This document shows, piece by piece, positions 2,825-40,898 of a stretch of DNA of 64,000 nucleotides. Each line of letters opens with the position of its first letter. The first letter of the stretch is position 1. The notes under the pieces were generated by a model. It did not search any database. It saw only the letters and a program-made list of their open reading frames with translations, and was not told where the DNA came from. Position numbers and translations under genes: made by a program. This DNA comes from a virus: IMG/VR virus record IMGVR_UViG_3300037258_000161, positions 44,412 through 108,411 of that record. One strand, 5' to 3'.

Positions 2825-3523
2825 TCAGGTTTCCTCACCGCCCGTCCCATTAGGCGATGTGGGGGCGGATTTGGGTTCGGTAGTGACTGCCGGCCAGACG
2901 ACCTGCGCTCTTGCGGTCAGGACGTTCTTCCGGTACGTCGGGTCCTGCCACTGGGCCTTCCGGGTCGCACTGAGTTTCGCTAGCGCCTCCGCAGAGTGCG
3001 TTCGGCCTATGTGAGCTTCCGAGCGGTTCTTACGGCCCTCTTCGGAGCGCTGCCCTGCCAGGATGGCGGCACGTTTCTCCTTGTCAGCCCACATAGCGCG
3101 ACCGTTCGCGGACATCGTGGCCAGCAGTTCCGGGCTCTTCTCGCGACCGCGGTTAGCCGCCCCGATCTTGGCCCGCGTCTCGGCGGACACCACGCGCCCG
3201 CGGTGTGCCGCGCTGAGCTTGGCCCGCGTCTCAGGGGAGATCGAGCCCTTGATGCGCTCATTGAGCAGTGCGCCGCGGGTGAGTTTGCGCAGGGCGATGA
3301 TGCATGCCCGCTCCACCTTGTTGGCCTCTTCGCCGTCCTCGACGATGGCGATGATCCGGAAGGCTGGCGGAGCATCCAGCGTCCGCAGCCACTGGTGCAG
3401 CTTGTTGTTCCTGCGGGTGCGGTCGTTCCAGTGCTGGCGCTGCCTGCCTTTACCGCTCACGGACTGCCCGATGTACCTGATCTCACCCGCGTCGCCGAGT
3501 ACGGCGTAGATGTCTGTAGCCAT
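2825..3523 (-). CDS. GIY-YIG homing endonuclease with NUMOD3-like repeats
   Basis: DIYAV...RYIGQS...R..H...E..I...LLN, then repeated SxETRAKL/I motifs; ATG at 3523. Confidence 0.8.
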   Translation of the reverse strand: MATDIYAVLGDAGEIRYIGQSVSGKGRQRQHWNDRTRRNNKLHQWLRTLDAPPAFRIIAIVEDGEEANKVERACIIALRKLTRGALLNERIKGSISPETRAKLSAAHRGRVVSAETRAKIGAANRGREKSPELLATMSANGRAMWADKEKRAAILAGQRSEEGRKNRSEAHIGRTHSAEALAKLSATRKAQWQDPTYRKNVLTARAQVVWPAVTTEPKSAPTSPNGTGGEET

Positions 3524-3532
3524 GCGGTCTAT

Positions 3533-3548
3533 TGTACATCCATGTACA
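3533..3548. promoter_or_regulatory. Tandem TGTACA palindromes (candidate Phd/YefM operator)
   Basis: TGTACA at 3533-3538 and 3543-3548, just upstream of the antitoxin gene. Confidence 0.55.
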
Positions 3549-3557
3549 TGAGCTAGC

Positions 3558-3758
3558 ATGGATGTCATGAGCGAGTCTTCAGAGAAAGGCGTCGCCGAGT
3601 TGCGGCTTGAACTGGCCGACGTCCTCAATGCCGCCGCCGTGCGCGGCGAGATAACCTACGTCACCAACCGCGGGAGGCGCATGGCCGCCGTCGTCCCCAT
3701 TCCCGTCGCTGAGGCGGCCGAAGCGGCGGCCAAGTCGAGGACTGATCGGCAGAGATGA
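3558..3758 (+). CDS. Phd/YefM family antitoxin
   Basis: GVAELRLELADVLN...GEITYVTNRGRRMAAVVP fits the Phd/YefM N-terminal pattern. Confidence 0.8.
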   Translation: MDVMSESSEKGVAELRLELADVLNAAAVRGEITYVTNRGRRMAAVVPIPVAEAAEAAAKSRTDRQR

Positions 3759-4422: not shown

Positions 4423-4854
4423 TCAGGGCCGGGCGTGGATCTCGTAGCTCGCGCCGTAACGCGACATGTCCTGGTTCTCGTCGGGGATCCACCGCGGCCC
4501 GACTACCACCGTGACCGTCTGGACCGTCCCCTCCGGCAGGCTCACCCCCCGCAGCTGCCACAGCAGGAGGCATTCGCAGGCCTGCGCGATGGCGTACGCC
4601 GCATCCCGGTCGAACGAGTACACGTCCAGGTCCACGATCGGGCGGTCCACGAAATAGCTCCGCGTCGCACCGGACACGCGGCTGATCCGGGTCCACGCAC
4701 CGGACGCGCCAGGGGGGATGTACGGCAGGTCGGTGCAGAGCCTCACCGGGGCGAGCACGGCGTTCTGCCCGAGCCCCTGCTGCCCGGTGAGCCAGTTGAG
4801 CAGCAACACCTCGATGTCAGGGAACGGCTTCGGGCTGAACCTCGGCAGCGGCAC
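4423..4854 (-). CDS. Tail terminator
   Basis: FPDIE...RISRVSG...DRPIVDLDVY...GPRWIPD; synteny. Confidence 0.8.
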   Translation of the reverse strand: MPLPRFSPKPFPDIEVLLLNWLTGQQGLGQNAVLAPVRLCTDLPYIPPGASGAWTRISRVSGATRSYFVDRPIVDLDVYSFDRDAAYAIAQACECLLLWQLRGVSLPEGTVQTVTVVVGPRWIPDENQDMSRYGASYEIHARP

Positions 4855-4855
4855 G

Positions 4856-5194
4856 TCAGTCGCCGGCCGCGCTCATCAGCGCGTTGAGCATCGTGTGGTG
4901 AGCCAGCTGGCGGTGCGTGCCGTACTCGACCCAGCGGGCTTCGGGGGCTGAGTTCGAGATGATTGCTGCCGCCCTGTCCCCTTTCCAGCCGCCAGCGCTG
5001 GTGATCGTCATAGAGAAGGAGTCCTTGTACCGGCCGCGGTGCGGATCTTCCCAGTCGCCGTGATAGACGGGGGCCGTGGCGATGCACTGCGCCAGGACGT
5101 TCGCGCCGCGGCGTCCCATCTCGGCCTGCAGGAAGTCCGAGCGGAGCATGGCACCGATTCCGGCATAGCTGCCCTGGTAGGTGCTGCCGCCCAT
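4856..5194 (-). CDS. HK97 gp10-like neck/tail-completion protein
   Basis: APV...GRYKDS...ARWVEYGT...HHTMLNAL motif. Confidence 0.75.
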   Translation of the reverse strand: MGGSTYQGSYAGIGAMLRSDFLQAEMGRRGANVLAQCIATAPVYHGDWEDPHRGRYKDSFSMTITSAGGWKGDRAAAIISNSAPEARWVEYGTHRQLAHHTMLNALMSAAGD

Positions 5195-5203
5195 TGGTGC
5201 CCC

Positions 5204-5575
5204 CTAACCCGCCTCGGTAGACATGTGGGCCGTGGCGCCCGTGACGCGCTTCAGGTGGACGAAGACCGGGCCGACGAGGCCGGTAAAGGGCGACGTCCAG
5301 GTGCCACCCTCGCCAGTAATCTCGAACGTTTCGCCGTTCTCGCGGATGATCCGGTCCTGCGGCGCGACCGGTGTTCCCCGGGGCAGGTACATCTGGCCAC
5401 CAGCCGTGACCTGCTCAGTGCCGATCGCGGCTTCGGCCTCGGTACCGGGCTCCCATGCGACGGGGCCGACCGTAGAGTCGGTGAAGGTGATGATGTCGTT
5501 GCCGCGAGCGCTCCGGCCGGTTATGGCCGCCCTTTGGTACGTGACGTACTCACCTGGACCGCCGGGATCCAGCAT
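5204..5575 (-). CDS. Head-to-tail stopper (head closure)
   Basis: DRII...GETFEITGE...W.SPFTG...V.LKRVTG; synteny. Confidence 0.75.
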   Translation of the reverse strand: MLDPGGPGEYVTYQRAAITGRSARGNDIITFTDSTVGPVAWEPGTEAEAAIGTEQVTAGGQMYLPRGTPVAPQDRIIRENGETFEITGEGGTWTSPFTGLVGPVFVHLKRVTGATAHMSTEAG

Positions 5576-5596: not shown

Positions 5597-5932
5597 TCAG
5601 GCCACGTGCTTCCAGGTCACCCGGTTGACGACGTCGTGCACGGTCGGCTGCTTTACGCCATAGGCGGCACCGAGGGTCTGCTGGGAGACGCCGCCTGCGT
5701 CCCATCTGCGGCGTATCTCTCTCACTTTGTCCTCGTTCAATTTGGCGCAGCAGTGCTCGTTGCCCTTGGCTGGGTGAAGTGAGCCATGGCGCAGCGAGTC
5801 CTGCACGTTCTCGCTGTGAGTGCCGAACTCAAGGTTGGACGCAGCACAGTCGGTCTTGATGCCGTTCTTGTGCCGGCGGACCAGACCGGGCGGCAGAGGT
5901 CCGAGGAAAGCGGCCAGGTCGTATCCGCGCAT
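5597..5932 (-). CDS. HNH endonuclease, probably N-terminally truncated, with C-terminal HTH
   Basis: AFLGP...VRRHKNGIKTDCAASNLEFGTHSEN, then AKLNEDKVREIR. Confidence 0.7.
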   Translation of the reverse strand: MRGYDLAAFLGPLPPGLVRRHKNGIKTDCAASNLEFGTHSENVQDSLRHGSLHPAKGNEHCCAKLNEDKVREIRRRWDAGGVSQQTLGAAYGVKQPTVHDVVNRVTWKHVA

Positions 5933-6576
5933 TAGCGCAGGCGCGTCATGATCGTGCCAGTCGTGAGCCGGTAGTCCTTCAGTGCCGCGAGGTCAGCCTG
6001 AGTCAGGGCGACCGCCACGCCACCGCCAGACCGCTCCAAACGGTACGAATACGCCCCTAATGTTTCCCCGATCACGCCCGCCGCAAGAGTCGGCGCCGCG
6101 AGTACTGACAGCACTGCATTCGCGCAGACCATCACCACGTCGTCGGGTACCTCGGGGTAACCGTAGTTCCGGCAGACCTTGAAGGTCTGGGGGTACAAAT
6201 CGGAATCCCAGTACACATAGGGCAGGTTGATGATGAAGTCGGTCCCCACGTCCAACCGGATGCGGTCGATCCCGTCGAAGATGAACCAGGTGATCGGGAT
6301 GTCCGGCAAATCAATGCCGCCGCCGAAGTCGCTCCCGATCGCGGTCACGGAGATGACCTCGGTCGTGGTCTTGTCCGGCAGCAGGATCTCGGAGTCGTGG
6401 CCGCGGAAGATGCCCGTCTCATCCGCGTGCAGCAGGAAGTCCCGCCGGCAGTAGCGGCGGATCTGCGCCGAGGCGTCGGCCAGGAGCGCCGGGGCACGCG
6501 TGGCCTCAGCCTCGGTCAGGTCGCGCCCCAGCCGCGCGGCGACGTCATCCGGCTGGGCGAGAGGGGGCGGGCTCAT
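5932..6576 (-). CDS. Head-to-tail adaptor
   Basis: LAQPDDVAARLGRDL...LLADASAQIR...ETLGAYSY. Confidence 0.8.
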   Translation of the reverse strand: MSPPPLAQPDDVAARLGRDLTEAEATRAPALLADASAQIRRYCRRDFLLHADETGIFRGHDSEILLPDKTTTEVISVTAIGSDFGGGIDLPDIPITWFIFDGIDRIRLDVGTDFIINLPYVYWDSDLYPQTFKVCRNYGYPEVPDDVVMVCANAVLSVLAAPTLAAGVIGETLGAYSYRLERSGGGVAVALTQADLAALKDYRLTTGTIMTRLR

Positions 6577-6624: not shown

Positions 6625-6978
6625 CTAGTGGGTGCGGATGCGGCCGGTCACCCAGAGGGTGATCTTCGCCGTGGTCCCCTGCAGGCCACTGAGGAAGTCG
6701 CCGGGCTGCATGACGATGCCGAGTGTGCCGAGGGTTGAGGCCAGCGATGACGAGGACACCGCCGCCACGGACAGGGCGGCGGCCACGCGGTGCGTGACCC
6801 CGGCGGTACCCCCCGAGGGCACGACGTCCAGCGTGTAGCCGTACGCGGTGCTCCCGTCGTTGTTGCAGGCCACCACGTTGTCGAGGATCCAGTCCTCGCC
6901 GGCCGGAACGGTGGCGAGGGTGGTCGCCGAGGTAGTCGGCTGTCCCTTGTAGAAGTTGGCGTTCTGGAGCGGTCCCAT
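6625..6978 (-). CDS. Putative virion decoration protein (beta-sandwich); paralog of 21894..22259
   Basis: Follows the capsid gene; beta-rich; similar to 21894..22259. Confidence 0.5.
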   Translation of the reverse strand: MGPLQNANFYKGQPTTSATTLATVPAGEDWILDNVVACNNDGSTAYGYTLDVVPSGGTAGVTHRVAAALSVAAVSSSSLASTLGTLGIVMQPGDFLSGLQGTTAKITLWVTGRIRTH

Positions 6979-7029: not shown

Positions 7030-8031
7030 TCAGACGGCGCTCGCGATGGCACCGAAGGGCCAGCGCTGCTGGGTCCCCCCCGCTCCGTCGATCGTCTCGG
7101 TCGGCTGCATGATGGTGACCGGGTTCGCGGTGGCATAGGCCATGCGGAAGGTCAGCTTCATGGCCACGGCGTTCTGCTGGAGGAGGTTGAGGACGACCTG
7201 CCCGGAGTCGTTGCTGATGACGCCCACATCGGTCATCTGGAACGAGATGTCCTGCCGCAGCCCGATCACAGCCTTGGTCCAGTCGCCGCACAGCACCTGG
7301 GCCTTGGCGCCTTGCCACGAGCCGTTCTTGACCTCCGTCATCGTGTAGCCGTACAGAAGCGAGTTCCCCGTCGCCTTGCCGTTCTGCATGTCGGGGGCAT
7401 AGATCGGGACACCCTGTTCCGACCGCAGTCCCTTCAGCCGCCATCCCAGGCCGGGACGCGCGGCGAAGCCGTCCACCGTGTAGCCGGTCTGGGACATTGC
7501 GTCCCCGAGGGCCGCGATGGACTGCCCGAAGTCGTCCGCCGACTCGGTCCCGGCGGAATCCAGGTAACCATCCTGGACGACGTTCCCGGCCGCTACCGCA
7601 CCGTCGTAGATCGCCTGTCCCCATGTGGTGGGCTTGGCGACATTCCAGAAAACAGCCGAGTCGATCAGTGCGCCGAGCGCCTCCACCATCCGCGGCTGGA
7701 CCTGCGCCCAGACATCCACATCGGCGTCATCGAGATACGCCTTCGGAACGGGGATGATCGTGGCGAGTTCCTCCACGACCAGCTGGACGCCCTTCCATGC
7801 CTGCGCCGCCGTCTGCACGAGGCCCGTGTCGCCTCCGACGAAGTAGGCGACCGGCAGCATGTCCAGCACGGGGATGCGCTGGGTCTTGGAGGACAGCGGC
7901 ATGTGCGCCATCAGGCCCAGGGCCGCGCTCGAAGTCGGGAGTTCCTGGAAGATCTCGTTGCTCAGCGGCTCCGGCACGAGTGCGTCGGAACCGCTGGAGC
8001 GCGAGATGAGGTCGTTATAGACACCCGTCAT
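7030..8031 (-). CDS. Major capsid protein (HK97 fold)
   Basis: 333 aa; LVPEPLSNEI...AYFV...EELATIIPV...GDW...GLRQDI...NLLQQNAVAMK. Confidence 0.92.
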   Translation of the reverse strand: MTGVYNDLISRSSGSDALVPEPLSNEIFQELPTSSAALGLMAHMPLSSKTQRIPVLDMLPVAYFVGGDTGLVQTAAQAWKGVQLVVEELATIIPVPKAYLDDADVDVWAQVQPRMVEALGALIDSAVFWNVAKPTTWGQAIYDGAVAAGNVVQDGYLDSAGTESADDFGQSIAALGDAMSQTGYTVDGFAARPGLGWRLKGLRSEQGVPIYAPDMQNGKATGNSLLYGYTMTEVKNGSWQGAKAQVLCGDWTKAVIGLRQDISFQMTDVGVISNDSGQVVLNLLQQNAVAMKLTFRMAYATANPVTIMQPTETIDGAGGTQQRWPFGAIASAV

Positions 8032-8084: not shown

Positions 8085-8783
8085 TTACCTGGAACGGAGG
8101 TCTTCGTACTGGTTGCGGATCCACTCGCCGCCAGTCCGCGGCGCGTCACGGCCCGCAGGGGACGCCCCGGCGCGCATGGCTTCTACGGGCCGGCGCCCGC
8201 GGGCTGCCGCCGCCGTTCCCGCGGCAGTGGCTGAGGTGCCGTTCGCGCCAGCCGCCGCCTGGGCCGTGGCGAGCTGGGCCGCCACCTGGTCGGCGACACG
8301 GTTGTTGATCTCGGCGGCGATGGCCTCCGCATTCGCGTTGATCTCGTCCTCGGTCGCACCGCTGAGCGTGTCGATCAGCCCGGGAGGGAGTCCGTACGTG
8401 GCCGCCGCGAGGGTGCGGTGATAGCGGCCCTCCGCGTCAGCCGCGCGCTGCTCAGCCGCGGCCCGGGCGTCGGTCTCACGCTGGAGCTCGGTCTTCTGGG
8501 CGTCCTCGATCGCGGCGAGCTTCCTGGCTGCCTCGCCGCCCGCCTGGACCTGGTTTCTGTACCTGTTCGCCGCCGTCTCGTTCTTGCGGGACAGGTCCCG
8601 CCACTTCTTTGCCTCAGCCTGCGCCGCGGCGAGCGGGTCACCCTCGGTGCCGTCATCGCCGCCGGTGAGAGCGTCGGCGAGCATCTCCGCCGGGTCACCC
8701 CCGGCGTCAGCGGCCGGGGCTGCGGGTGCGGTGGCGTCAGCGGTTCCGGTGCCTTCCGCCCCGGCTCCTGCGTCTTCGGACAT
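8085..8783 (-). CDS. Scaffolding protein
   Basis: KWRDLSRKNE...IEDAQKTELQR coiled coil; upstream of capsid; GGAGG RBS before ATG 8783. Confidence 0.85.
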   Translation of the reverse strand: MSEDAGAGAEGTGTADATAPAAPAADAGGDPAEMLADALTGGDDGTEGDPLAAAQAEAKKWRDLSRKNETAANRYRNQVQAGGEAARKLAAIEDAQKTELQRETDARAAAEQRAADAEGRYHRTLAAATYGLPPGLIDTLSGATEDEINANAEAIAAEINNRVADQVAAQLATAQAAAGANGTSATAAGTAAAARGRRPVEAMRAGASPAGRDAPRTGGEWIRNQYEDLRSR

Positions 8784-8807
8784 GCGGATGCCTCCCATTC
8801 CGGGAAA

Positions 8808-8862: not shown

Positions 8863-9234
8863 TTACTTGCGGGTGGGGCCGTCCGCCTTGAGGCTGCCGT
8901 CAGGTGCCCAGGTCGGGGGAATACGGGAAGAGAGACCCAGCTGTTTCGCGCGCATCATGACGAATCTCCGGACCGCCGCGCGTGCCTCGTCGGTAGCAGG
9001 CTTGATGCGGCCGATCGCCTTGATGGCGTTGTCCAGGTCAGCGGCGTTCTGAATGTTGAACCGGGGGCGCCCACCGGGCTTCGCTGGAGGCAGCGCCTTC
9101 CGCTGCTTCTGGAGCTTCCGCATGGTCGCGACGTCGGGTGTGGCCATGGGCCGCTTCCTTCCTGGCGAGAGGGGTTCGGGGACGAGGGGGTCACTGCCAC
9201 TCGAGCGGGAGATGGCTGAGCCATAGGAAGCCAC
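8863..9234 (-). CDS. Head-region protein whose N-terminus copies the capsid N-terminal peptide
   Basis: GTG 9234 with GGAGG RBS; ISRSSGSDPLVPEPLS vs capsid ISRSSGSDALVPEPLS; second in-frame ATG at 9147. Confidence 0.7.
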   Translation of the reverse strand: MASYGSAISRSSGSDPLVPEPLSPGRKRPMATPDVATMRKLQKQRKALPPAKPGGRPRFNIQNAADLDNAIKAIGRIKPATDEARAAVRRFVMMRAKQLGLSSRIPPTWAPDGSLKADGPTRK

Positions 9235-9349
9235 GGGACCTCCCGTCGCTACGCTGGGAGCATGGCCAAGGTTCACCTGCAGGTCCGGGCCGCTGGACCG
9301 GGTCGCGCACGGAAGCTCGCCCGGTACATGACCCGGTGGGAGGGCGGTA

Positions 9350-10156
9350 CTACGCGACCCGAGGTGCCCCTACCGCGTCAGGGTGAGCCTTATCCCAGTA
9401 CCGCCGCCATGCCCGCACTGCATCCGGTCCAGAGAAACCTCTGGTGACCCGCCTCCATTGCCGGTACAGGTCGTTGTCGCGGAGGGCCTTGGCGTCTTCC
9501 CTGCTAAAGGCTGCTGCGGCGCTGCAACGGCAACGCGAATGCGCCTTAAATCCTGCGGTCTGGGCGGTTTTGTACACTGCGCCACGTCCCGCTAGAAGGG
9601 CGCACCACGCGCATGGATCCGCCGCCGTAACGCGGTACCAGGCGACCGCTGCCGAGTCCTGCTGGACGGCCTGCAGGACCGCTGTGCGGGCCCCGTTCTG
9701 GATCAGCCGGGTAGCCGCCGACGCCATCACGTTCCCGGTCGCCTGCGCCGCCTGCGGGACGGGCTGCCCGGCCTTGATGCGCTTCAGCAGCGAGTACGGG
9801 CCGGTCGAGTCCAGCGTGGCCGTGACGAGTTCCGGGGGAGGCGGAGGGGGCACGCTCAGCAGCGGGGGAAGCGTGACCACCCCGGCTGCTGAGCGGGCCT
9901 GCTGATAGTACGCGTTCCCCGCCTGCCCCATCGCCTGTGACTGGGTCCCGATGACCGCGGTGATGGACGTGCGCACCTGGGGCCATGACGAGATCACGTT
10001 CCGCAGGTCAAGCAGTCCCCACAGGCTGGTGATCTGCGAGAGAAGCCATGCCACCTGCCACGCCTGCTGCTGCCTGGAAGATTCGGCGATCTGGGCCTGC
10101 GCCGCACGGGACGCGGTCGGCTGCGTGAGCGGCACCGGCCCGGCGTAGAGGCTCAC
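9350..10156 (-). CDS. MuF-like / capsid maturation-associated protein
   Basis: WYRV...PCAWCALLAGRGAVY...AHSRCRC; follows the portal gene. Confidence 0.75.
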   Translation of the reverse strand: MSLYAGPVPLTQPTASRAAQAQIAESSRQQQAWQVAWLLSQITSLWGLLDLRNVISSWPQVRTSITAVIGTQSQAMGQAGNAYYQQARSAAGVVTLPPLLSVPPPPPPELVTATLDSTGPYSLLKRIKAGQPVPQAAQATGNVMASAATRLIQNGARTAVLQAVQQDSAAVAWYRVTAADPCAWCALLAGRGAVYKTAQTAGFKAHSRCRCSAAAAFSREDAKALRDNDLYRQWRRVTRGFSGPDAVRAWRRYWDKAHPDAVGAPRVA

Positions 10157-11766
10157 ACGCCGTGGGTCCGTTTCAATGCTGGCCCCTGGAAGGGATCGTC
10201 ATCACCCGGAGGTGCCTGCTGGGCGCCCTGGGTCATCTGCGACTCGATCAGCTGATCCAGTTCCGCCAGCGCACCCTGCTTCGACGCTGCGGCCTTCCAG
10301 CGGGCCACATCATCGGCACTCGTCCCCGGCACCCGCTGCCACAGTTCCGTCGCGGGCACGCCGAGCATCTGGGTGAGTTTCCCGAGGGCGTCCACGGTGC
10401 CGGCGAACGCCCGGCCGCCCGTGTCGCGCCAGACGATCACCGCGGCGTCGTCATTCCACCCGGCCAGGTCGCCGGCTGCTTTCGACGCGAGCTGGAAGGT
10501 CTGCTTGTGGGGCTCGTTCAGGACACCCTGGGCCTCTTCCACTCTGCGGTCGAGCGCGTCGCGACTCGCAGTCAGGGCGTCTGCGGACAGATTTACCATC
10601 TGCCCCAAAAGATAATAAGGCGGCAACTGCGTGATGGTGCTCATGTGCACGATCGTGGCCTCGGCCGACTTGAGAAACCCCGTGAGATCCGTTTGCGCGA
10701 ATTCACCGAATTTCGTGTCGGAATCCTCAGCCGTAAAGAGGCGGTCAACACCAGCCCGGAACGGCTCCTTCGGGTTCCCGTCCTCGTCAGACACAACCAT
10801 CCCCGTGACCCACCGCTGCCTGAAAGCCCCGTACTGCTGGGCCATCAGGGCATTGAAGGTCGTGGTGTTCAGCTGGTCCTGCAGCGGGATCAGCGGCTCC
10901 ACGATCCCGGAGACGTCCATCTCGCCGTCAAGGTCAATCTGGTGCAGGTAGCGAACGACGGGGCACACCCCGAGCCCATGCTCGCTGACCGCCTGTGTTC
11001 CGTTGAGCAGGACCGGGTCGTCGTCCTGCGGCCAGAACAGGCCCTCAGTGTCGGCCTTCCCGGTCAGCGTGTAGACCTTCTGGTCGTCATACAGCCGCAC
11101 GATCCGCCGCGCCCCGCCGGGCGCGTTGACGACGGTCTCCTCGACTGCGTAGGCAGGCCATTCGTCGTCAACGTCATCGGCGTACAGGGCGGTGAGGCGC
11201 CGCGGCGACACCGGCCGGATCACCGGATACGGCTCCCCGGGCAGCACCACTGTGTAGGCGAGCCCGTACTCGATCACCGAGCGGTGCAGGCCGTGCTGAC
11301 GGCCTCCCATCCGGTTGGCCTGCCAGATCCGCCACGGCCCGTCATCTTCCTGCGGGGACTGGGCCTCTGCATGCGCGGCCTTCGCCTGGGCGAGAATCCC
11401 CGCCGCCCCAGCGGTATCACCGGCCTGCAGGGCGTCGTGAGCGCCCGCCAGGGCCACCGACACGTCATCGACCACATCCGCCGCCGCGCTCGGCCGGTAG
11501 CCGTCCACGTGCAGGTTCTGGCTAATCGTGGACACCACCAGCGGCAGGAAGTTCACCACCGACCGGTGCAGCAGCCAGCGGTACTCCTCCCGCGCGCCCC
11601 GCGGCACGTACACCGAGTCGTGGCGCCCGCGCATGTACTTGGAGATCCGCTTCAGGCGCCGCTGCTCGTGACCGCGGATGGCGAGGATCTTCTGCGCAAG
11701 CTGCGGGATGTCCTGGCTGTTTGCTGCGGAGGGAGCGTCGGCCTGCGCGAGCGTCATGACGGTCAC
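10153..11766 (-). CDS. Portal protein (SPP1 gp6-like)
   Basis: HGLGVCPVV...PLQDQLN...AFRQRWVTG...KFGEF...NLSADAL. Confidence 0.92.
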   Translation of the reverse strand: MTVMTLAQADAPSAANSQDIPQLAQKILAIRGHEQRRLKRISKYMRGRHDSVYVPRGAREEYRWLLHRSVVNFLPLVVSTISQNLHVDGYRPSAAADVVDDVSVALAGAHDALQAGDTAGAAGILAQAKAAHAEAQSPQEDDGPWRIWQANRMGGRQHGLHRSVIEYGLAYTVVLPGEPYPVIRPVSPRRLTALYADDVDDEWPAYAVEETVVNAPGGARRIVRLYDDQKVYTLTGKADTEGLFWPQDDDPVLLNGTQAVSEHGLGVCPVVRYLHQIDLDGEMDVSGIVEPLIPLQDQLNTTTFNALMAQQYGAFRQRWVTGMVVSDEDGNPKEPFRAGVDRLFTAEDSDTKFGEFAQTDLTGFLKSAEATIVHMSTITQLPPYYLLGQMVNLSADALTASRDALDRRVEEAQGVLNEPHKQTFQLASKAAGDLAGWNDDAAVIVWRDTGGRAFAGTVDALGKLTQMLGVPATELWQRVPGTSADDVARWKAAASKQGALAELDQLIESQMTQGAQQAPPGDDDPFQGPALKRTHGV

Positions 11767-14388: not shown

Positions 14389-15285
14389 TCAGGAGCGGCT
14401 TCGGAGCGCCGCCTCGTTGTTCTTCCTGCTGTTACAGGAGTAGTGGGCGCACTGAGCGTTCGCCGGCTCATGGAACCCGCGTGGCTCTCCCTCGCGGGGC
14501 CGCAGCGGGACGATGTGGTCGATCGTCGGTGAGAGGAGGTCCGGCCAGACGGCGCCCCGGCTGACGGGCTTCCCGCAGAGCTGGCAGATCCAGCCGTCGC
14601 GCTCAAAGATCTCCAACGGCTCAACAGGTGCCCGGAACGCAGCCGCCTCCACGGCCCGGCGTACATGCGAGGCGATCCGGCCGTAGCAGCGCTGCGAGCA
14701 CGTCCTGGTCTTCGGGTCAATACTCACAAACCATGTACCGCAGCACGAGCAGCGACCTGAATACCACTGCTGGCGCAGGCGTGGCAGCCTCGGGCTGGCT
14801 GCCTTGAGCCGCGCTAGTAGACGTGGATGCAGCCATCCTTCGGGGCGTTCCCAGAGGACTACCTGCGAGCGGGCTGCGCGCACGGCGTCATAGTCGCAAC
14901 TCACGGAGCGGCCGGAGCGGCAGCTATCCGAGCAGTAGAACGAAGTTGGAGCGGGTGCCTGCCACAAATCGCCGCAGCTTTGGCATATCAGCGTCCATTT
15001 GCGCGTCTTATTGTGGCAACTATTTGAGCAGAACCAGGTACGGGGCTCGGAGTTCGTCCATTTCTTGCCGCAGTTCTCGCACGTGTGCTCGTAGCGGTAT
15101 TGGGATCTCCACGTCTTCCCGGTGCGCTTGGCGTAGCTGCGGAAATACTCTCTCGCCCGATCATTATTGCGCCGCCGTTTACATTCAGGCGCAGAGCATG
15201 TTTTCCACCTCTCCTGCGCCGTCTCGGTGCCGCAGTACTCGCAGGCACCCCGGACGGGCGCAGGGACTGGCACGAGGATCCTCAT
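14389..15285 (-). CDS. HNH endonuclease with several CxxC zinc fingers
   Basis: IFERDGWICQLC...TIDHIVPL...H...NAQCAHYSCNSRK. Confidence 0.85.
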   Translation of the reverse strand: MRILVPVPAPVRGACEYCGTETAQERWKTCSAPECKRRRNNDRAREYFRSYAKRTGKTWRSQYRYEHTCENCGKKWTNSEPRTWFCSNSCHNKTRKWTLICQSCGDLWQAPAPTSFYCSDSCRSGRSVSCDYDAVRAARSQVVLWERPEGWLHPRLLARLKAASPRLPRLRQQWYSGRCSCCGTWFVSIDPKTRTCSQRCYGRIASHVRRAVEAAAFRAPVEPLEIFERDGWICQLCGKPVSRGAVWPDLLSPTIDHIVPLRPREGEPRGFHEPANAQCAHYSCNSRKNNEAALRSRS

Positions 15286-27551: not shown

Positions 27552-28862
27552 TTGGCATTCCCTCGGCCCTCACTGGACCGAGGTTCCCGGGTGCTCATGC
27601 GGCGCTCCGGGTGATTCCCGCTGCCCCGGCGAGTGCCGGGGACTTCTGCGGGCGTGAGACCCCGTGCCCCGGGGCGTGCGCAGGGACAAGCTCACCAGTG
27701 GTGAGCAGGAGTCCCCGGGCAAGGATGTTGCGCGCGGCATTGCGATCTGCGTGATCCTCGTGGCCGCACTCCTGGCACCGGAATACCGCTTGGCTCTCGC
27801 GGTTCTCCTTAGCCGTGTGACCGCAGACGTGGCACTGCTGCGAAGTGAAACGCGGGTCGATCTGGACGACCGTGACTCCGGAGGCGACGGCTTTGTGCTC
27901 TAGCCGCTCAGCTAGCACTCCCCAGCAGGAGGCAAGGATGCCCCGGCTCAGGCTGGCCCGTGCGCGAGCCTGGTTTCGGAGGAAGTTCCCGGCTAGGTCG
28001 GGGTCCGGCTTGGCCGCGGGTCGCCTGATCATGCCCTTGATGTTGAGCTTCTCCAGCACGACCAAGTCGTGGTCGGAGACTATGCGCGTGCTGATCTTCT
28101 CCGCCCAGTCTCTGCGGCGGTCGGCCACTCGCGCGGCCATGACGGCAAGGGTGCGACGTGTGCGCTCACGCTTGGCCGAACGCTTGTGCTGCCGTGCCAT
28201 GCGCTGCTGAAGGGCGATGTAGTGCTGGGCTTGGGCGGCCGAGATCCGGGGAGCGCGGTAGTGCTGACCGTCTGATGTGACCAGTGCGGTACGGATGCCT
28301 CGGTCAAGGCCAACCGAACCCTTGGTGGACTCGCGCCTGATGGCAGGCTGCGGTGCGGGGAAGGACACATGCCAGCGGCCGGTCTTGTCACAAGTGACCC
28401 GGGCCATACGCAGTTCGGTGGGCAGTTGGCGCGTCCACCGGAAGCGGACGTAGCCGCACTTCGGCACGAACACTGCTCCCCAGCGACGATTTAGTCTCCG
28501 AGCCTTGGTATCGCGGATCACGAAGCCCTGGCGCCCGCGCTTGCTGCGGTAAGACGGCATCCCGGCAACCCTGGACTTGTCGAAAAAGGCGCCCAGCGCA
28601 CGGTCGAAATCCCGGAGCGCCTGCTGCTGGACGGACGACGCCCCGGCCGCGAGCCAGGGTTCCGCTTTGCGCGCTTCCGCCAACTGCCGCTGGCGATCCG
28701 CGCTGCCCGGCGCTCGCCCGCGTCCGGGGCGCCACCACGACTGCTGCTCCACGGCGAGGTTCCAGACGAACCGGGCGTGCGCACAGTGCTCCAGGAGGGT
28801 TGCCTCCTGGCGAGCATCAGGGCACAGGCGGTTCCGTATGGCCATGTTGTACATTGTACTGC
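27552..28862 (-). mobile_element. IS200/IS605-family TnpB-only element (no tnpA seen); omegaRNA expected at ~27552-27700
   Basis: tnpB plus 3' hairpin CCTCGGTCC-AGTGA-GGGCCGAGG ending ...GCCAA; left end not defined. Confidence 0.6.
27595..28845 (-). CDS. tnpB: RNA-guided endonuclease TnpB
   Basis: HARFVWN, QQQALRD, RuvC GLDRG / VLEKL / HADRNAARNI, zinc finger CHVC...CQEC. Confidence 0.92.
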   Translation of the reverse strand: MAIRNRLCPDARQEATLLEHCAHARFVWNLAVEQQSWWRPGRGRAPGSADRQRQLAEARKAEPWLAAGASSVQQQALRDFDRALGAFFDKSRVAGMPSYRSKRGRQGFVIRDTKARRLNRRWGAVFVPKCGYVRFRWTRQLPTELRMARVTCDKTGRWHVSFPAPQPAIRRESTKGSVGLDRGIRTALVTSDGQHYRAPRISAAQAQHYIALQQRMARQHKRSAKRERTRRTLAVMAARVADRRRDWAEKISTRIVSDHDLVVLEKLNIKGMIRRPAAKPDPDLAGNFLRNQARARASLSRGILASCWGVLAERLEHKAVASGVTVVQIDPRFTSQQCHVCGHTAKENRESQAVFRCQECGHEDHADRNAARNILARGLLLTTGELVPAHAPGHGVSRPQKSPALAGAAGITRSAA

Positions 28863-40077: not shown

Positions 40078-40344
40078 ATGATCTGGGTCATCCTCCTCGG
40101 TGCCGCGCTCTTATACGTCCTGTCCTGGTACATCCACCCGCTGATGGCGTGCCCGGCCTGCAAGGGCGCTTCCCGGCACTACGGGGCGCTGCACCGCTCC
40201 AAGTTCCGCTTCTGCCACGTCTGCGGGGGCAACGGGAGGGCGGTGCGGCCCGGGGCGAAGGTGCTCATGTCCGCGGGACTGATGAAGAACGGCGCCGAGC
40301 GGACGGGGAGCTACGGGTGGGCGCGGAGGAACCGGCGCCGCTAG
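40078..40344 (+). CDS. Small membrane protein with DnaJ-type zinc finger
   Basis: TM helix + CPACKG...CHVCGGNG. Confidence 0.6.
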   Translation: MIWVILLGAALLYVLSWYIHPLMACPACKGASRHYGALHRSKFRFCHVCGGNGRAVRPGAKVLMSAGLMKNGAERTGSYGWARRNRRR

Positions 40345-40898
40345 CGCTTCCAGGACACTAGCCGGATCCCCAGCGACCCTCCGGTGCCAAGCTGGGCGTC
40401 TGCAGCGCTGTCGGCAGAGCGTGACACCCTGGGCACATGACGCTAGCCCCAGCAGAAGCCGCAGCGCTCTACCGCGATAAGAAGCTCTCGGCGTGCGAGA
40501 TCGCGCAGCTTCACAAGCTCACCCCGCAGGGCGCGGCAGCGAGGATACGGACTGGCGGTCTTGGCGGCGTGACGTGGTGCCGGATCCACCGCACCTACGA
40601 GGACGTGAGCCTTGTCAACGCTGAGGCGGTCTCGTACATGGCTGCCCGCTGGGGTGCCTGACGCGCGCTCGCTACCAGGCGTGATGATTCCCGGGCCTTG
40701 CGCACAGGCCGTGACGAAGCGGTAACCTGAGCCCGACAACTGAAACGCCCCCGGCCGACGCTTGCGACGCCGGACGCGGGGACTTGCCTCCACCGATCCG
40801 TTGAAAGCCCGGTGACGACCAAGCATGAGCGTACCTTTCAAGCGCCTGCGAGCGCAGCGCCCCCCTGTAGCTAACCCGCTACTCCCTGCGATCTAGCC

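Follow-up and report, generated by a model that had tools for sequence, protein, structure and literature searches.

A second copy of the capsid N-terminal arm in a small head-module protein and in other phage proteins, and its possible role as a docking tag

Why should a small protein, encoded in the head module of a phage, begin with what amounts to a copy of the N-terminal arm (N-arm) of that phage's own major capsid protein? The gene in question lies in a window of 64,000 nucleotides (the whole stretch of DNA that was analysed), which is part of a 108,411-base virus record with a completeness rating of 92%. A preliminary description, made from the letters of the window, had drawn attention to the copy and had proposed that it serves as a capsid-targeting tag that loads a basic cargo domain into the head.

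The head module and the copied stretch

The head module occupies the minus strand of the window from 14.3 kb to 5.9 kb, and its genes are ordered as terminase subunits, portal, VG15/MuF-like protein, the small open reading frame (ORF), scaffold, capsid, a 117-aa ORF, and head-tail adaptor. In particular, we identified a portal protein of the SPP1 gp6 type (10153-11766, on the minus strand, as are the other head genes given here; PF05133, E=5.4e-35; phrog_104), a VG15/MuF-like minor head protein (9350-10156; PF25310, E=3.8e-28; phrog_193), a scaffolding protein of the DUF4355 family, as in 80alpha gp46 (8085-8798; Pfam and PHROG matches), and a major capsid protein with the HK97 fold and no delta domain (7030-8031; PF05065, E=2.4e-17; phrog_10). 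The capsid ORF scored 63.7 bits against PF05065, the cut-off being 24.2, which places it among the HK97-fold proteins; its closest solved counterpart by profile match is the capsid of mycobacteriophage Muddy (8EDU, E=1e-98), and its identity to the capsids of cultured phages is 45% at most. (Note that in the record G001 the capsid gene is found in two overlapping frames, 4582-4857 and 4856-5539 (L245/L246), reflecting a frameshift or an assembly error.) The 117-aa ORF (6625-6978, minus strand), which sits between the capsid and head-tail adaptor genes and has no Pfam or PHROG match, may encode a decoration or head-completion protein. Also present in the window are a cysteine-rich ORF upstream of the small terminase gene (14389-15285, minus strand), with an HNH-like motif at its end as judged by eye, and a GIY-YIG-like ORF in the tail region (2825-3628, minus strand), likewise assigned by eye. 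In Muddy (L340), a 259-bp stretch with no annotated gene (5763-6022) lies between the MuF-like and scaffold genes, which is the position held by the small gene in the window.

The small ORF, in the longer of its two putative forms, encodes a protein of 123 aa with a pI of 11.5 (8863-9234, minus strand; GTG start, TAA stop). Residues 8-23 of this protein and residues 9-24 of the capsid protein are identical at 15 of 16 positions, the sole difference being Pro versus Ala. Of the 15 residues in common, just 4 (Ile, Arg, Asp, and Leu) are specified by the same codon, and at two Ser residues the copy and the capsid gene differ by a switch between AGY and TCN codons. The count of identical residues, the count of codons in common, and the Ser switch had been given in the preliminary description and were recovered in full when the minus strand was read directly. 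The likeness starts further towards the N-terminus, at a Tyr (residue 4 of the small protein and residue 5 of the capsid protein), from which point 16 of 20 residues, 5 codons, and 36 of 60 nucleotides are the same. This N-arm-like tag, comprising residues 4-23 of the small ORF (9166-9225, minus strand), reads Y-x3-I-x-R-x4-D-P-L-V-P-E-P-L-S and matches our peptide profile A3 with an E-value of 7.9e-16; the template of the copy is the N-arm motif at residues 5-24 of the capsid protein (7960-8019, minus strand), within which Y5, R11, G14, D16, and L18-L23 are invariant in 15 capsid homologues. When the ORFs of the 108-kb genome, in all six frames, were searched with the first 30 residues of the capsid protein, the best was the small ORF, at E=1.9e-9, and the next best had an E-value of 1.0, which excludes chance as an explanation for the copy. 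Similarly, a scan of the genome with the peptide profile scored seven candidates and gave two matches, the capsid protein and the small ORF. A self-scan of Muddy gave no second copy of its own capsid N-arm.

Comparison of homologous loci indicated that it is the peptide, rather than the DNA, that is conserved, as had been proposed in the preliminary description. Twelve distinct loci have the extension fused in frame to the remainder of the small gene, with the start codon at the same M-A-x-Y position. Across these loci the extension had a pN/pS of 0.53, as against 0.42 in the domain that follows it, with pS saturated at 0.57; the fact that the amino acids are conserved while the synonymous sites are saturated argues that the extension is under purifying selection. 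The module as a whole has the consensus Y-x3-[IV]-x-R-x3-6-D-P-L-V-P-E-P, over ~20 residues, and the near-identity seen in the window reflects, for the most part, two copies of a very conserved motif.

Solved capsids offer some indication as to what the copied stretch does in the capsid protein itself. In SPP1, which has a head module with the same gene order, the capsid N-terminus is described as first binding the scaffold through a helix (Phe15-Leu26) and, after scaffold release, as unfolding to give an extended arm, which passes between subunits and forms an antiparallel pair with its counterpart from the next capsomere, with contacts at Tyr3, Ile10, Pro12, Phe15, and Tyr18 (PMC6813328). 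In 80alpha, the N-arm helix is bound by the helix-and-hook at the scaffold C-terminus (PMC5644958), and in a profile alignment this scaffold-binding helix falls just after the stretch that is copied here. In Muddy, a loop of the A domain is reported to form a salt bridge to the N-arm of the neighbouring subunit (10.1101/2022.09.09.507160). Taken together, these accounts suggest that the copied part is the arm's extended tip, where contacts to other capsid subunits are made; judging by motif likeness, the copied stretch may correspond to the contact residues of SPP1.

Two starts in the small gene and the peptide as a separate ORF

The small gene has two candidate starts. The GTG of the long form (9234-9232) is preceded at 4 nt by the Shine-Dalgarno sequence GGGAGG (9239-9244, minus strand). 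An in-frame ATG (9147-9145) lies 6 nt downstream of the purine-rich Shine-Dalgarno sequence AGGAAGGAAG (9163-9154), the two elements together spanning 9145-9163 on the minus strand; this second start, too, was noted in the preliminary description, and its purine-rich site proved to be conserved in the fused loci. Initiation at the ATG would give a short form of 94 aa (8863-9147, minus strand) that comprises the conserved basic domain, and it is this form that appears as the public gene call (P0003, from ATG 9147). Most of the fused homologues have Shine-Dalgarno-like sites upstream of the long-form start, and in all nine of the fused loci that were printed the internal start (ATG or GTG) has a purine-rich site 6-10 nt ahead of it, which in several of the loci is made up of AGA or AGG codons. 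The internal start is thus conserved together with a ribosome-binding site that serves it, as in a dual-start gene, and the conservation of the internal purine-rich site probably reflects selection, at the level of the DNA, for a second initiation event that would yield a short untagged form alongside a long tagged one. In lambda, the C and Nu3 head genes are nested in frame, with an internal start. The small gene resembles this type in having one frame, two conserved starts, and a long and a short protein, but differs from it in that the long form has only a 29-residue tag in addition, and in that the two products are putative. Among 53 database homologues, the extension motif was found within the first 70 residues in 26.

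The peptide also occurs as an ORF of its own, of 33-60 aa, in seven distinct loci. In five of these (L018, L076, L077, L079/L080, and L081) it forms a separate ORF of 44-60 aa that ends in K-K-G-K or similar and whose stop codon either adjoins or overlaps the small gene's ATG, the junctions being TGA-ACC-ATG, TAA-ATG, TAATG, and ATGA. (Note that L018 and L077 were counted as having separate ORFs on account of in-frame stops seen by direct reading.) In the other two, L021 and L015, the peptide is found in an ORF of 57 aa or ~33 aa that immediately follows the portal gene; here the small gene is without the extension. In total, we counted 89 distinct loci that contained a relative of the small gene and for which sufficient upstream sequence was available; the tag is fused to the gene in 12 of these, is in an abutting ORF in 5, and is not found within 250 nt in 72. 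The codons for the basic residues that follow the tag coincide with the Shine-Dalgarno sequence of the next start, and these residues may therefore be a by-product of the site. We entertained the idea that programmed frameshifting or readthrough joins the mini-ORF to the small gene, and set it aside on finding four different stop/start arrangements among the five loci and, by eye, no slippery heptamer. A search for longer proteins containing the mini-ORF returned only a longer call of the same ORF.

The C-terminal domain is basic (pI 11.6) and has the motif …Y-P-I…D-L-D-N-A-I…G-R…R-A-K-x-L-G…I-P-D-x-W. The small protein, including its short form, has no match in Pfam, PHROGs, or NCBIfam, and a PDB sequence search with the small-protein profile gave rows at chance level only (E-values of at least 0.1). 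The name DUF6582 (PF20223) was suggested solely by language-model neighbours in a protein atlas (score 0.96) and was rejected, as there was no match to this family for the protein, for the six-frame genome at E<=10, for the 53 homologues, or for 10 distant copies of the domain. In distant loci the domain is fused after a ClpP-type protease (L105, L106, and L095) or before Peptidase_S78 (L117), and its fusion to two families of head protease places the domain in head maturation. (In L054, L083, and L084, a 25-position motif of PF23847 (DUF7211) directly follows the same domain.)

Other carriers and a single extra copy per genome

To define the range of proteins that carry the peptide, the 30-position profile A3 was compared with 1.84 billion protein representatives at E<=0.001. 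Forty-seven matches were obtained, in 35 of which the motif lies within 12 residues of the C-terminus and in 5 of which it lies within 12 residues of the N-terminus. Four are repeat proteins that we took to be spurious (three of them on inspection; the fourth is P0065), and two are N-terminal fragments of capsid proteins. Most of the remainder are proteins of 40-145 aa with unrelated N-terminal parts, among them cysteine knuckles and acidic stretches.

In IMG/VR, the motif also ends a protein of ~205 aa that contains the methyltransferase motif E-A-G-S-G-I-G-T. This protein belongs to a family that some sources name SAM-dependent methyltransferase and that has weak matches to known methyltransferase models; the family numbers 213 at E<=0.001, and of the 120 members listed, 90 end with the motif, ~8 more have a degraded or cut version of it, and the rest have other tails. 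Members were found alongside the same capsid family in 20 of 33 records, and in 6 of 6 of those that are at least 90% complete. The tagged methyltransferase gene was found 12-17 kb downstream of the capsid gene, and in the same orientation, in 18 of 18 records. We considered whether the tags might be 5' pieces of split capsid genes, and this idea was discarded given that the tagged genes are 12-17 kb away from intact capsid genes. The tail of the methyltransferase profile matches the capsid N-arm of the window (E=0.004), which is its only match in the genome; thus, the 108-kb genome has no methyltransferase by profile search, yet has two copies of the motif.

The tag is not confined to these enzymes, nor do all of them have it. 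The methyltransferases of G010, G013, and G032 have no strict tag. Proteins of 153-190 aa (open-frame lengths) bear the tag in G003 (40333-40389, plus strand), G037 (27779-27835, minus strand), and G039 (8935-8991, plus strand); at least two of the three share a part resembling P-P-D-Y-D-K…A-A-Q-R-Y-I, and one adds a C-x-R-C…C-D-D-Y-P-x-C knuckle. Unlike the tagged methyltransferases, these cysteine-rich or acidic carriers are encoded on the strand opposite to the capsid gene, and so may not be products of late genes. When the small protein, its extension, one mini-ORF, and two of the tagged proteins were used as tblastn queries, no cultured phage with the tag was found. Similarly, the profile found no tag in Bbif-1, ReT1v-2, NoShow, Bridgette, or KimJongPhill, a single 10-position match in the last of these (E=0.009) being taken as chance.

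We profiled 28 viral records that had been reached by three routes, namely the small gene, the methyltransferase, and the motif. Exactly two matches to the motif, one at the capsid N-terminus and one in another protein, were present in 26 of the 28; in one of the remaining records the start of the capsid gene is off the contig, and the other, G045, which is 52% complete, has the capsid copy only. Each of the 11 records with a completeness of 90% or more has exactly two matches, and in no record were there two tagged proteins other than the capsid. Moreover, where the methyltransferase is without the tag, in G003, G004, and G037, another protein is tagged (three of the three examined). Note that the count of records in which the extra copy is present may be inflated by the routes through which the records were reached; the lack of doubly tagged records is unaffected by this. 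To judge from these sequences, the known carriers belong to uncultured soil actinophages with this capsid family, with what appears to be one non-capsid copy in each.

The preliminary description had put forward, as a check, that the peptide should co-vary with the capsid of its own phage. Such co-variation is present but weak. For 13 peptide/capsid pairs (the near-duplicate loci L009, L016, and L079 and re-fetched copies having been dropped), the peptide agreed with its own capsid at 12.62 and with other capsids at 11.63 of ~20 residues (permutation p=0.0002 by identity and 0.012 by BLOSUM). For 17 pairs of methyltransferase tag and capsid (8 of 25 records having been dropped because they had no strict tag or an unreadable capsid start), the values were 10.06 and 9.35 (p about 0.005). 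The difference thus amounts to about 1 residue in 20, by statistics that ignore shared ancestry, and we take the effect to be real but small and largely at the level of clades. Strong lineage-specific co-variation was rejected, as the peptide of the window agrees with its own capsid at 16 of 20 residues and with three other capsids at 16 of 20 residues as well.

A candidate docking tag and its alternatives

We consider there to be about an even chance that the peptide is a docking tag that works by mimicry of the capsid N-arm. The long form, initiated at GTG 9234, would carry the copy of the capsid arm, and the short form, initiated at ATG 9147, would be without it. During head assembly the tag would occupy a site that recognizes the capsid's own N-arm, candidates being a groove on the neighbouring capsid subunit, the partner N-arm across the two-fold axis, and the scaffold, and by docking there the tag would anchor its carrier in the head, possibly taking it into the virion. 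Because the scaffold of 80alpha binds the helix just after the copied stretch, the scaffold is not clearly the partner of the tag. The strongest evidence for a docking tag is its portability, as the peptide is found at either terminus of unrelated proteins, including an enzyme. To this extent the proposal of a capsid-targeting tag for the small ORF is partly supported; the accompanying proposal of a basic cargo domain does not hold in general, given that in the seven mini-ORF loci the carrier is no such domain. Indeed, the mini-ORFs are nearly all peptide, with no obvious cargo, which weakens the case for docking. A general cargo label would also be odd in view of the fact that no record has more than one tagged protein, whereas T4 tags several of its proteins.

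Capsid-targeting peptides are already known from T4, P1, and the encapsulins, and what appears to be new here is a copy of the capsid's own arm. (DarB of P1 has methyltransferase content.) Our searches of the literature, under N-arm mimics, capsid targeting sequences, and DUF6582, turned up no described tag that copies the arm of its own capsid. The tag fits neither clamp-binding nor type VII secretion motifs. The capsid targeting sequence (CTS) of T4 IPIII and the first 30 residues of P1 DarB, which belongs to an anti-restriction system that the capsid carries, are short terminal peptides that target the capsid (PMC9024508). As in those cases, a short terminal peptide (within the range of 10-30 residues) here appears on otherwise unrelated carriers, as if to address them to the head. 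The T4 and P1 signals, however, are N-terminal, have been demonstrated experimentally, and are not reported to resemble the capsid protein, whereas the candidate tag described here copies the capsid N-arm and occurs at either terminus and once per genome. The targeting peptides of encapsulins are stretches of 10-20 residues at the termini of cargo proteins that direct loading into an HK97-fold shell during self-assembly (PMC11664910); they are not copies of the N-arm of the shell, and the shell in our case belongs to a phage, which has a portal and a scaffold as well. A further parallel is CpmB of SaPI1, a small protein that copies an assembly-contact peptide, the C-terminus of the 80alpha scaffold, and binds to the same site (PMC5644958). 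CpmB, as portrayed there, copies the helix-and-hook of the scaffold and belongs to a parasite of the phage; here it is the phage itself that copies its capsid N-arm.

The finding of exactly one non-capsid copy per record fits at least as well with the peptide being a working part as with its being a cargo tag. The main alternative, conceivable albeit doubtful, is that the peptide itself is a single-copy assembly cofactor, in effect a surrogate N-arm, and that the carriers are incidental hosts. Such a cofactor might fill or cap N-arm acceptor sites that have no partner, for example around the portal vertex, or might time the joining of capsomeres. In favour of this are the one non-capsid copy in 26 of 28 records, with never a second, the observation that the tag changes carrier while the count stays at one, the occurrence of mini-ORFs of 33-60 aa, two of which come straight after the portal gene, and the unusual invariance of the capsid N-arm motif. 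Less easily accommodated is the position of the tag at the very end of 90 of the 120 listed methyltransferase homologues, much like an address on an enzyme. In addition, G045 has the capsid copy only, though that record is 52% complete, and the vacant N-arm site is putative. A related and bolder proposal, which we regard as unlikely, is that each phage of this clade needs exactly one extra copy of the N-arm, a surrogate arm that completes the capsid lattice, most plausibly at the symmetry-mismatched portal vertex, and that has repeatedly been reused as an anchor for payloads such as the methyltransferase, the basic head protein, and small cysteine-rich proteins.

We think it improbable that the peptide is recognized by an enzyme or chaperone instead of being an element for docking to the capsid. 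It might be a processing site; alternatively, the tagged methyltransferase might take it as a substrate or pseudosubstrate, in which case the enzyme would modify the N-arm of the capsid protein. The precedent comes from 80alpha, where the capsid protein, the scaffolding protein, and ribosomal protein L27 are described as having a common N-terminal motif that is cut by the host protease Prp (PMC5744158). That phage also has a DUF4355 scaffold, and in it, too, one short peptide stands at the start of both the capsid protein and a second head protein; moreover, the commonest carrier of the tag is a putative enzyme, and the motif contains an invariant Arg. The motif of 80alpha, as described in that source, is a removable N-terminal propeptide that is cleaved between F and A. 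The tag, in contrast, is mostly C-terminal, overlaps a conserved part of the N-arm, and contains no F-A pair, and the scaffold in the window is without it. With the motif within 12 residues of the C-terminus in 35 of 47 bearers, cutting would free almost nothing. In addition, models for Peptidase_S78 and CLP_protease, the two families searched, gave no match in the 108-kb genome at E<=10. These findings disfavour the shared protease site that the preliminary description had offered as an alternative, and a processing site was rejected for this genome, in which neither an S78 nor a ClpP protease was found. As for the methyltransferase version, this genome has the tag but no methyltransferase.

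Finally, it is highly improbable that ATG 9147 is the sole start, with no long form produced and the upstream likeness left over from a partial duplication of the capsid gene: although the gene caller picked the short form (P0003), the internal Shine-Dalgarno sequence and ATG are conserved, and homologues without the extension exist, the extension is in frame with a conserved start in 12 loci, its amino acids are kept while synonymous sites are saturated, and other gene contexts retain the motif as well.

Short peptides with a head-targeting function are known from a few model phages. If docking by mimicry of the N-arm proves to be correct, it would provide a rule, readable from sequence, for recognizing packaged or capsid-bound proteins in uncultured phages; a methyltransferase-like enzyme may travel with the virion; and the tag would constitute a natural handle, transferable to other proteins, by which HK97-type capsids could be loaded. 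That each genome has strictly one tagged protein could, for its part, reveal a unique site in the capsid. Should the reading of the peptide as a surrogate arm be the true one, a peptide that completes the capsid lattice would double as a natural, modular tag for docking to the capsid.
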